Under the pieces are notes generated by a model. It ran no database searches, was not told the origin of the DNA, and saw nothing but the letters and a program-made list of their open reading frames with translations. From a virus, in the IMG/VR virus record IMGVR_UViG_3300002225_000002: a DNA stretch of 64,000 nt; one strand, 5' to 3'. Shown here in pieces: positions 22,366 through 24,000 of this stretch. A program made the position numbers and the translations under genes. Positions within the stretch are counted from its first letter, which is position 1, and each line of letters begins with the position of its first letter.

Positions 22366-22850
22366 TTTCTAATAACGCAAGTGTCATGGGAACGGAGTAC
22401 ACCTTGCAAAAAGAATGACTCCGATAACGATGGCAAGAACGTATCTATTTCCATATCTTTATATACGCACGAATCTTTGATCGTAGTTATATATGCCTTA
22501 CTGATGTGTTTCATAAAAGCAGCGTATGTTTTTTCTCCACCTATCACGATAAATTCTTTATCGCTGTGGAGTTTAACTAATTCAAGGATGCTATCAAAGT
22601 TCATAAACCTCAAACTACCATGCGTGCTATTAGCATGACGTGTGACAACATAGTTGTCTCTGTTAGGTAGCGCTCTGCTACCAATGGACTCAAACGTGTT
22701 ATGTCCCATAATAACTGATTTACCAGTGGTGAATTCTTTAAAGAATTTCATGTCTTCTGGACATTTCCATGGTAATCTATTTTCTGACCCTATACCGCCA
22801 TCTTGCGTAGTCGCCGCGATAAGGGATAAATTCTCAAGTATCTGTGTCAT
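22344..22850 (-). CDS. folA: Dihydrofolate reductase
   Basis: GIGSENRLPWKCPEDMKFFK, VIMGHNTFESIGSRALPNR, VIGG. Confidence 0.93.
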   Translation of the reverse strand: MTQILENLSLIAATTQDGGIGSENRLPWKCPEDMKFFKEFTTGKSVIMGHNTFESIGSRALPNRDNYVVTRHANSTHGSLRFMNFDSILELVKLHSDKEFIVIGGEKTYAAFMKHISKAYITTIKDSCVYKDMEIDTFLPSLSESFFLQGVLRSHDTCVIRKWRTPRT

Positions 22851-23124
22851 TTTTATCTGCCTTGTTAAATGCTCTAACCATTATAGGATGCAATTTCATA
22901 GATGCCCCAATAGCTATACCACCGGCAATTATAAAAGCAAACCATGTAGGTGAGTATGCCTCTGTCTGTGATATGGCGTTGACGTTATAAAAGCTACACA
23001 CACTGATGAGCAGTGATGTCGTCATTGCCATATAAATATGGTTGTGAACCACATTTAATTGATTGAGGCCCACTAATAAAATCATAAAAAACTGTGATAT
23101 AAATACGTAGGCCACATCAATCAT
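22834..23124 (-). CDS. Small multi-pass membrane protein, 96 aa
   Basis: About three hydrophobic segments. Confidence 0.55.
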   Translation of the reverse strand: MIDVAYVFISQFFMILLVGLNQLNVVHNHIYMAMTTSLLISVCSFYNVNAISQTEAYSPTWFAFIIAGGIAIGASMKLHPIMVRAFNKADKNDTDT

Positions 23125-23402
23125 TTGCTATACACCAAAACCTTATCGTCAATACTATCTGCTCCACTATCATCAATCTCTTGAAGTCGCACAGATAGTT
23201 CCATGCGCCGTAGACCAGGATTTATATTGGCGTTCTTACCAAATAGTTCCACCGAATACACTTTTTTTGTGTCCTTTGATACCAAACGATCTAATACTTC
23301 ACTAATAAACCACTTCTCGTTTGGATCTGTAAACAATGAAACGCCATCATCGGAGAAAAATAACGTCGGCTCCGACACCAACCCAGTTACATGATACGTC
23401 AT
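23121..23402 (-). CDS. Hypothetical protein, 93 aa
   Basis: Operon context. Confidence 0.5.
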   Translation of the reverse strand: MTYHVTGLVSEPTLFFSDDGVSLFTDPNEKWFISEVLDRLVSKDTKKVYSVELFGKNANINPGLRRMELSVRLQEIDDSGADSIDDKVLVYSK

Positions 23403-23636
23403 CTATTCTCTCAGTGGATCGATCTCAACAGTGTTTGTGTCAACTTCTGCTAAGTCGATATCATCTTGGTTAGATGGAGAGTAATAGGCTTCTGAATGGT
23501 GTTCAGCGCAGTAACTTGATCCAGATTTAATTTGCTTGCTATGGCAGAAAACTATGCCACGCTCGTCTATCGACACCGGCCACTCACATTCTGTGGCTGG
23601 TGGGATAGGACCTGTGTTATGTTGGGGAGTCGTCAT
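23403..23636 (-). CDS. Stand-alone GcrA C-terminal-like Cys3His zinc domain protein
   Basis: CEWP...FC...YCAEHHSEAY matches the GcrA C.WP...FC...YC..H...AY signature. Confidence 0.6.
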   Translation of the reverse strand: MTTPQHNTGPIPPATECEWPVSIDERGIVFCHSKQIKSGSSYCAEHHSEAYYSPSNQDDIDLAEVDTNTVEIDPLRE

Positions 23637-23667
23637 ATATACCTCTGTTAATGGATAATCTGAATCA

Positions 23668-23691
23668 ATTATAACATGTTTTCAACATGTT
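23668..23691 (-). promoter_or_regulatory. Extended -10 promoter TGTTATAAT with tandem AACATGTT palindromes
   Basis: TATAAT at 23668-23673; AACATGTT at 23673-23680 and 23684-23691. Confidence 0.5.
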
Positions 23692-23694
23692 TTC

Positions 23695-24000
23695 TCAATC
23701 TATATCTGTGTATTCTATGACTATGGTATGGTTGCCTGTAGTTATTGCCTCCTTTACGGCATCAACTAGGTTACTTTCGTAGCTTGGCACTGAATACCAC
23801 GTAATATCATACGGGCTATCTACGAATCCCTTCACTGCATCGTACACGTTCTTTCGGTAATCATCAAGATCGTATACGTTACAATCGTTCAAACCTACCA
23901 TCTCAATTAAACTGTCGTAATAAATGATCTGGAAGGTTATTTTCTTTCCTTTCTTATCTGTGGCGACGTATTTAACGCCGACCTCTTTTAAATCAATCAT
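23695..24000 (-). CDS. Hypothetical protein, 101 aa
   Basis: Operon context. Confidence 0.55.
   Translation of the reverse strand: MIDLKEVGVKYVATDKKGKKITFQIIYYDSLIEMVGLNDCNVYDLDDYRKNVYDAVKGFVDSPYDITWYSVPSYESNLVDAVKEAITTGNHTIVIEYTDID

Follow-up and report, generated by a model that had tools for sequence, protein, structure and literature searches.

GcrA of Caulobacter recognizes methylated DNA through its N-terminal domain, which a linker joins to a C-terminal sigma-interacting domain (SID), the last of these being a CCCH (Cys-Cys-Cys-His) zinc finger with the ligand pattern C118-x14-C133-x9-C143-x2-H146 (PMC5887438). Six residues of the SID (W120, F130, F132, Y142, A150, and Y151) enter a groove on sigma70 that is made up of the coiled coil of regions 1.2/2.1 together with the non-conserved region (PMC5887438). 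The interaction is abolished by W120A, G129D, F130A, F132A, Y142A, or Y151A in GcrA and by A136E or A143R in Caulobacter sigma70, and it requires both region 1.2 and the non-conserved region, which the small sigma factors of phages lack (PMC5887438). The isolated C-terminal domain binds sigma70, and GcrA deprived of its N-terminal domain is still located at sigma70 promoters in vivo (PMC4647560). Directly after the SID, a basic patch (K157-K159) contacts the non-template discriminator phosphates at -7 to -4 and stabilizes the open complex; its deletion reduces activation, and the residual activation by GcrA lacking the DNA-binding domain has been attributed to it (PMC9976885). Here we describe a 64,000-nucleotide stretch of viral DNA (virus record IMGVR_UViG_3300002225_000002; hereafter, the window) that encodes a 77-residue protein homologous to the GcrA SID, from which the DNA-binding half is missing.

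Phage-borne members of the GcrA family are known in full-length form from annotation, namely, phiCbK gp222, gp5 of Agrobacterium phage Atu_ph08, and the homologues in the Caulobacter phages Senya and Shash, and have been proposed as host-takeover transcription factors (PMC3556154, PMC6630229, PMC13459779). These still have their DNA-binding half and are presumed to behave like GcrA in alphaproteobacterial hosts, whereas the window protein consists of the SID alone, has inverted charges, and comes from another phage lineage. A distinct set of small early phage proteins, including T4 AsiA, Xp10 P7, P23-45 gp39, and ORF67 of the S. aureus phage G1, bind the host primary sigma factor and redirect the host RNA polymerase, all of them via sigma region 4 and the beta-flap; the site on sigma regions 1.2/2.1 is listed for cellular activators only, namely, RbpA, Crl, GcrA, and GrgA (PMC7403470). 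The original prediction for this gene had drawn an analogy to AsiA, and this survives in a broad sense. However, AsiA-type proteins have unrelated folds and act on region 4, in contrast to the predicted placement of the window protein on regions 1.2/2.1, and no sequence or fold match to AsiA was recovered in Pfam, PHROGs, and PDB searches of the window protein. In the literature available for searching, SID-only proteins were not the subject of any paper.

In the list of open reading frames (ORFs), the gene runs on the minus strand from an ATG through 77 codons and ends in a TAG (23403-23405). It had been singled out as encoding a stand-alone GcrA C-terminal-like zinc domain with the motif C-x-W-P...F-C...Y-C-x-x-H...A-Y, an acidic tail, and no N-terminal helix-turn-helix (HTH), and all of these elements are present as described. 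The motif is realized in the order C17-E-W-P, F30-C31, Y42-C43-A-E-H46, and A50-Y51; the last 26 residues have a net charge of -7; and the matched core is preceded by just 13 residues, which leaves no room for an HTH. The match to the Pfam GcrA family (PF07750; E = 1.1e-5, 26.3 bits) is likewise confined to positions 109-150 of the 155 in the profile, and the NCBIfam model NF050816 (sig70cofacGcrA), an equivalog model of full-length GcrA, aligns through its C-terminal end (E = 0.01; 16.2 bits versus a cut-off of 280). In the PDB, the best sequence match is 5yix_B (E = 0.035), the GcrA SID crystallized with sigma70 domain 2. A profile of the short family aligned by hhalign with a profile of seven full-length GcrA-like proteins gave a probability of 98.2% (E = 4.7e-14), the alignment being confined to the SID columns.

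The structural model agrees with these searches. Residues 11-50 are predicted by AlphaFold with a predicted local distance difference test (pLDDT) of 85-93, and the tail is disordered (pLDDT 54-61). Among 48,161 PDB chains compared with the model by VIA-align, only two reach Z >= 2, and both are GcrA SIDs: 5yix_B, at Z = 2.6 with 34% identity and a root mean square deviation of 2.5 A over 38 residues, and 7ye2_G, at Z = 2.2. The window protein has in common with the Caulobacter domain (residues 105-152; 5YIX, 7YE1/7YE2) a CCCH knuckle composed mostly of loops with a short C-terminal helix. The likeness goes beyond generic zinc ligands. C17, C31, C43, and H46 align with C118, C133, C143, and H146 of GcrA, so that the CCCH set of putative zinc ligands is present, and the positions essential for sigma binding, W120, G129, F130, F132, Y142, and Y151, correspond in the alignment with 5yix_B to W19, G27, I28, F30, Y42, and Y51, five of the six being identical and I28 a conservative replacement; A50-Y51 likewise preserves the A-Y pair. 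Three points stand on the other side: the Pfam score falls just short of the curated cut-off of 26.9 bits, the VIA-align Z-scores are low in absolute terms for what is a very small domain, and a Foldseek search of the model against the PDB gave no match. The below-threshold Pfam and NCBIfam scores are explained by the missing N-terminal half. A PHROGs scan of the protein returned chance-level rows only, there is no second GcrA match in the 347-kb phage genome, and the neighboring genes have no match to GcrA or to an HTH.

Conservation of the protein extends to 13 further short proteins. An exhaustive HMMER search over 1.8 billion representatives (E <= 0.001) yielded 15 matches, comprising 12 stand-alone proteins of 67-86 residues (the query counted), two full-length GcrA-like proteins, and one spurious repeat protein (P0015) that was rejected as a family member; a further profile search added one more short member. 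T15, C17, E18, W19, C31, Y42, C43, H46, A50, and Y51 are invariant across the family, and F30 is nearly so. The family is rare, and wherever the contig is long enough its members all occupy a single syntenic slot of PA5oct-like jumbo phages, in the order ThyA, ClpX, ribosomal protein S21, ClpS, two to three small ORFs, the SID gene, an ORF of 92-95 residues, in some cases a small membrane protein, and DHFR. In Pseudomonas phage PA5oct this slot, in the same gene order as in the window phage, is occupied by EST35_0264 (gp264), a 75-residue "hypothetical protein" that reads C-E-W ... C ... Y-C-L-E-H ... A-Y followed by an acidic tail, and that is matched by the family profile at E = 5.8e-9. The same profile, at E <= 1 per genome, found nothing in Vibrio phage 2.275.O, PBECO4, or Atu_ph07, and in Sinorhizobium phage Phosso only a chance-level row (E = 0.215, with three internal stop codons). 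DNA and tblastn searches of a phage collection with the region and the 77-residue protein returned nothing, tblastn being insensitive enough here to have missed gp264; a search of loci with the single protein retrieved, from viral contigs of high GC, six genes of the full-length GcrA-like type, none of them family members. Stand-alone SID ORFs also occur in metagenome-assembled genomes (MAGs) of Burkholderiales (75 residues; L031:2001-2120) and Rhodospirillaceae (68 residues; L032:1806-1934). Like the phage proteins, these have no DNA-binding half; unlike them, they have Q or R at the position of GcrA K119 and no acidic tail. SID-only forms seem to have arisen several times independently.

The window lies in a 347-kb virus record (94% complete, 40% GC) from marine and marine-sediment metagenomes, which has T4-type genes, including the Gp23 capsid. 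The virus is a jumbo phage related to PA5oct, with which it shares 81.7% identity in the major capsid protein; the corresponding identity is approximately 70% with Phosso and 66% with PBECO4-like and Vibrio jumbo phages. Rifampicin blocks PA5oct, which does not encode an RNA polymerase (PMC7318152), so this lineage depends on the host sigma70 holoenzyme. The phage genome does encode sigma-like proteins of its own: a sigma70-family ORF on contig C1 at ~8.2-9.2 kb (L015:1228-2172), whose match to region 2 exceeds the Pfam cut-off, and a 330-residue gp55-like late sigma at ~146.8-147.8 kb of C1 (L016:724-1716), followed, as in T4, by a gp47-like phosphoesterase. To our knowledge, Pseudomonas, the gammaproteobacterial host of PA5oct, has no GcrA; competition with a host GcrA is therefore unlikely.

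A complex was predicted between the window protein, supplied with its family alignment and Zn, and residues 92-462 of P. aeruginosa RpoD (RPOD_PSEAE). It scored 0.63 versus 0.00 for the best control; the mark on this score is attained by 58 of 80 solved complexes and by 2 of 110 mismatched pairs. Three runs gave 0.01, 0.63, and 0.67, with 61% of contacts in common between the second and third, and with an agreement of at least 5% and a partner pLDDT of at least 47 across all three. Sigma numbering was derived by aligning sigma70 genes, retrieved from genomes, with PDB chains, 7xya_F (617 residues) being taken to be P. aeruginosa RpoD from its length and N-terminal sequence. On this basis, 9 of the 11 positions in region 1.2 touched by GcrA in 5YIX recur among the predicted contacts: Caulobacter L128, L129, S130, G133, A136, K139, R140, A143, and D146, equivalent to P. 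aeruginosa L112, L113, T114, G117, E120, K123, R124, E127, and R130, respectively. The two that do not recur are E142 and T147 (P. aeruginosa E126 and E131). In region 2.1, Caulobacter K407, E411, Q414, and E418 correspond to I371, K375, R378, and E382, the last three of which are among the predicted contacts. On the phage side the contacts comprise residues 11-14, 18-20, 23, 27-28, 41, 46, and 49-54, mapping to L113, K119, W120, P121, D124, G129, F130, P141, H146, V149, A150, and Y151 of GcrA, that is, to the published interface. Contact residues within the conserved core are E18, W19, P20, G27, I28, F30, Y42, A50, and Y51. These predictions support a putative binding of the protein to domain 2 of sigma70.

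Within this interface the charges differ from those of GcrA in a manner that parallels the difference between sigma factors. The residue following the first zinc-binding cysteine is Lys in Caulobacter GcrA (K119) and Glu in the window protein (E18), and Glu is retained in all 12 aligned members, in gp264, and in the protein P0019. In the retrieved full-length and other stand-alone forms this position is mostly R or Q, with L in one (L003) and C in another (L034). In the predicted complex, E18 contacts R124, K375, R378, and A379. At the position of K375, Caulobacter and three fetched alphaproteobacterial sigma70s have Glu or Asp, whereas Lys is found in E. coli, in the Pseudomonas chain, in a second gammaproteobacterial chain, and in a Burkholderiales genome; these gamma- and betaproteobacterial sigma70s further have Arg where alphaproteobacteria carry Q, T, S, or G. 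The pairing of GcrA K119 with an acidic alphaproteobacterial pocket is thus mirrored by that of E18 with a basic gamma/betaproteobacterial pocket. Within the limits of the predicted model, no other argument speaks as strongly for a family that may be adapted to a non-alphaproteobacterial sigma. This same pairing bears on a dominant-negative role, also envisaged in the original prediction, in which the free SID would occupy sigma70 in an alphaproteobacterial host and shut off the GcrA/CcrM cell-cycle regulon. GcrA is indeed alphaproteobacterial, phages of that group carry full-length copies (PMC3556154, PMC6630229), jumbo phages of Sinorhizobium and Agrobacterium are related to the window phage (major capsid ~70% identical), and the permuted type of transfer-messenger RNA (tmRNA) that it carries is found in alpha-, beta-, and cyanobacteria. 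However, the invariant E18 suits the gamma/beta-type sigma70 and would meet Glu or Asp in the alpha type, and PA5oct, the closest cultured relative by capsid and the sole cultured phage with an orthologue, infects the GcrA-less Pseudomonas. Moreover, the gene is missing from the alphaproteobacterial phages Phosso and Atu_ph07, and no CcrM-type adenine methylase was found in the phage genome. We hence regard this role as very improbable.

Several observations weigh against docking on the host sigma70. RpoD was chosen as the sigma factor of the host of the nearest cultured relative and is a stand-in for that of the window phage's own host. One of the three runs failed (0.01, partner pLDDT 48), and the pass may derive in part from the model's memory of the solved 5YIX, so that the placement at the homologous interface in two of three runs agrees with the sigma70 binding proposed for this protein only with that qualification. 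Gamma- and betaproteobacterial sigma70s have Glu or Asp at the positions of A136 and A143, where A136E and A143R kill GcrA binding, and no consistent compensating basic residue was found in the family. In gp264 the first loop is shortened (C-x9-C) and the G-x-x-F hairpin is missing, and with it two of the six hydrophobic contacts on which GcrA binding depends. The disordered tail is unplaced in the model, and its proximity to the discriminator is extrapolated from GcrA. The acidic A136/A143 sites and the incomplete hairpin of gp264 would also fit a zinc knuckle that has the SID fold but a different target, be it a phage sigma-like protein, another surface of RNA polymerase, or a partner outside transcription, as would the two sigma-like proteins of the phage and a ligand spacing (C-x13-C-x11-C-x2-H) that is unlike that of GcrA (C-x14-C-x9-C-x2-H). 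Yet, the family invariants are the zinc ligands and the W, Y, and A-Y with which GcrA contacts sigma; the sigma70 complex prediction passed, with a score of 0.00 when sigma was replaced; and small phage sigmas are devoid of both parts of sigma70 that GcrA requires, region 1.2 and the non-conserved region (PMC5887438). A different target is, on balance, decidedly unlikely.

The second inversion affects the segment that follows the knuckle. Tails are acidic in 13 of the 14 short members (net -5 to -11), whereas those of seven of eight full-length GcrA-like proteins are neutral to basic (0 to +5), the eighth, P0011, being at -1. At the place of K157-K159 the window protein has D58 and D59, both in the sequence register to 5yix_B and at the end of the structural alignment, where model residue 58 meets residue 157 of 7ye2_G; GcrA's basic patch at the C terminus is thus replaced by an acidic segment. 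The earlier suggestion that the acidic tail could mimic DNA gains substance from this replacement of the discriminator-clamping patch, with the qualification that the position is extrapolated from GcrA. Taken with the predicted docking, these differences suggest to us, with a probability of roughly 0.5, that the free SID docks on the host sigma70 and that its acidic tail weakens or re-biases open complexes without activating transcription. In this model, a putative extended -10 sigma70 promoter of its own would drive the expression of the 40-residue CCCH knuckle protein in a PA5oct-like jumbo phage that depends on the host polymerase. The knuckle would dock on the coiled coil of regions 1.2/2.1 of the host primary sigma, at the site used by Caulobacter GcrA, with E18 in place of K119 re-tuning the docking to a non-alphaproteobacterial sigma. 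Lacking the DNA-binding domain, the protein would not read DNA, and its acidic segment would take the place of GcrA's clamp on the discriminator strand. The docked protein would then weaken or re-bias open-complex formation by the sigma70 holoenzyme in lieu of GcrA-like activation, with the strongest effect expected at host promoters that have unstable open complexes. We infer both this inhibitory direction and the promoter bias.

A more far-reaching version of this model, which we advance only tentatively, is that PA5oct-like jumbo phages captured the knuckle of the alphaproteobacterial GcrA, swapped its charge (K119 to E, opposite E411 to K in sigma) so that it fits the sigma70 of gamma- or betaproteobacteria, and gave it an acidic tail in place of the DNA-clamping basic patch, making it the first phage factor at sigma regions 1.2/2.1 and turning an activator into a destabilizer of open complexes. 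What is new relative to the described systems is the occurrence in a PA5oct-like jumbo phage lineage, one host of which lacks GcrA, together with the two charge inversions and a putatively coupled partner gene (see below). If true, the use of a borrowed GcrA module on sigma regions 1.2/2.1 in GcrA-less hosts would constitute a new route of host-transcription takeover, as well as a natural experiment in which one docking module has been re-tuned between sigma lineages. If the protein is merely an accessory zinc protein, the gain would be a modest improvement in the annotation of hypothetical proteins. The hypothesis is directly testable through gp264, since PA5oct is in culture on P. aeruginosa PAO1 and its transcriptomes are published.

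The presumptive promoter is suggested by the layout of the locus (Table 1). A gap of 54-78 nucleotides precedes the SID gene in all lineages, while the neighboring genes abut or overlap. Within it, the element TG-N-TAT(A/T)(A/C)T, lying ~30-55 nucleotides before the ATG, is kept in four divergent lineages, and the rest of the gap is variable; the orthologues also have GGAG-type Shine-Dalgarno sites at the place equivalent to that of the window gene. The upstream element is the sole GAAA-N3-5-TGNTAWWMT site of the window. The count of TGNTATAAT is not above chance genome-wide, nor is this motif enriched in the window, and the evidence for a promoter is therefore its conservation rather than its count. 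The element went unreported in a scan for consensus sigma70 promoters because it has no -35 match. A phage-wide promoter class was considered and rejected, given that TGNTATAAT is not enriched and the longer motif is single, which leaves a gene-specific element. Judged by its pattern and conservation, it is probably an extended -10 sigma70 promoter without a conserved -35, and this suggests that the SID gene may be transcribed by the host holoenzyme.

Table 1. Features of the SID gene and its surroundings (positions in the window)
Feature	Position	Strand	Basis
Stand-alone GcrA-SID-like protein gene, 77 aa	23403..23636	-	ORF list; Pfam GcrA; hhalign; 13 other short proteins
CCCH zinc-finger core, residues 14-52	23481..23597	-	Alignment to 5yix_B; model; structural matches; predicted sigma contacts
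Acidic C-terminal tail, residues 53-77	23406..23480	-	Tail charge table; family alignment; low pLDDT (54-61)
Putative Shine-Dalgarno AGAGG	23642..23646	-	5 nt upstream of ATG; read from sequence
Candidate extended -10 element TGTTATAAT	23668..23676	-	58-nt gap upstream of SID gene; conservation in four lineages
Partner gene, 93 aa	23121..23402	-	ATG directly after SID stop; alignment; model pLDDT 84
Upstream neighbor, 101 aa, conserved	23695..24000	-	Alignment, synteny; present in PA5oct as gp263

The SID gene is closely tied to the gene that follows it. A 93-residue partner lies directly downstream, abutting or overlapping, in seven of the seven marine members with enough contig, and the two genes overlap by 4-19 nucleotides in the relatives, an arrangement indicative of probable translational coupling; the partner is absent in PA5oct. 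It is modeled as a small alpha/beta protein with the order beta-beta-alpha-beta-alpha-beta and has neither a Pfam match nor a fold match in the PDB, AFDB clusters, BFVD, or Atlas. The idea that GcrA has been split and that this protein supplies the DNA-binding half was rejected in light of the absence of Pfam and fold matches and a model that is not an HTH. The partner nonetheless enters into an alternative in which the SID protein is a sigma-bound adaptor or activator with a positive, promoter-selective effect: either the partner or a peptide in the tail, VDTNTVEIDPL, would recruit a factor, or the domain itself would promote the opening of phage promoters in the way of RbpA, Crl, and GcrA. 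The known binders of sigma domain 2 are all activators (PMC7403470), and GcrA without its DNA-binding domain retains residual activation (PMC9976885); further, the tail peptide is common to the window protein and its closest relatives, which is beyond mere acidity, and the partner is consistently coupled in the marine members. On the other hand, the basic patch to which that residual activation is ascribed has its charge inverted in this protein; neither PA5oct nor the more remote members have the tail motif, and PA5oct lacks the partner as well; and the partner has no DNA-binding or other recognizable fold. We consider this alternative unlikely, but the foremost competitor to the open-complex destabilization favored above.

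A terminator-like hairpin with a T-run (23361-23380, minus strand) is situated just within the start of the partner ORF. It may be a chance occurrence, or it may dampen transcription that continues beyond the SID gene. Between the partner gene and DHFR lies a gene for a hydrophobic, probably membrane-spanning protein of 96 residues (22834-23124, minus strand), and the marine relatives have a protein of 94-97 residues in that slot, placed by size and position. In PA5oct (L021:11725-14140), gp264 is followed not by the partner and DHFR but by an "FtsH-interacting membrane protein" and a phage FtsH. The slot downstream of the SID gene is flexible.

Elsewhere in the genome, 37 tRNA genes are found at C1:193278-211544, and a permuted, two-piece tmRNA with the tag ANEELYAQAA at C1:229770-230138 (Rfam beta_tmRNA, 85.5 bits; tmRNA_permuted, 81.6 bits). 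Together with the phage ClpX, ClpS, ClpP, and S21, the tmRNA could form a phage-run circuit for tagging and degradation. Directly after the tmRNA gene, far from the true capsid gene (C1:162 kb), lies a Gp23-like N-terminal fragment (C1:230143-230241, 35.8 bits) in a 124-residue open frame.

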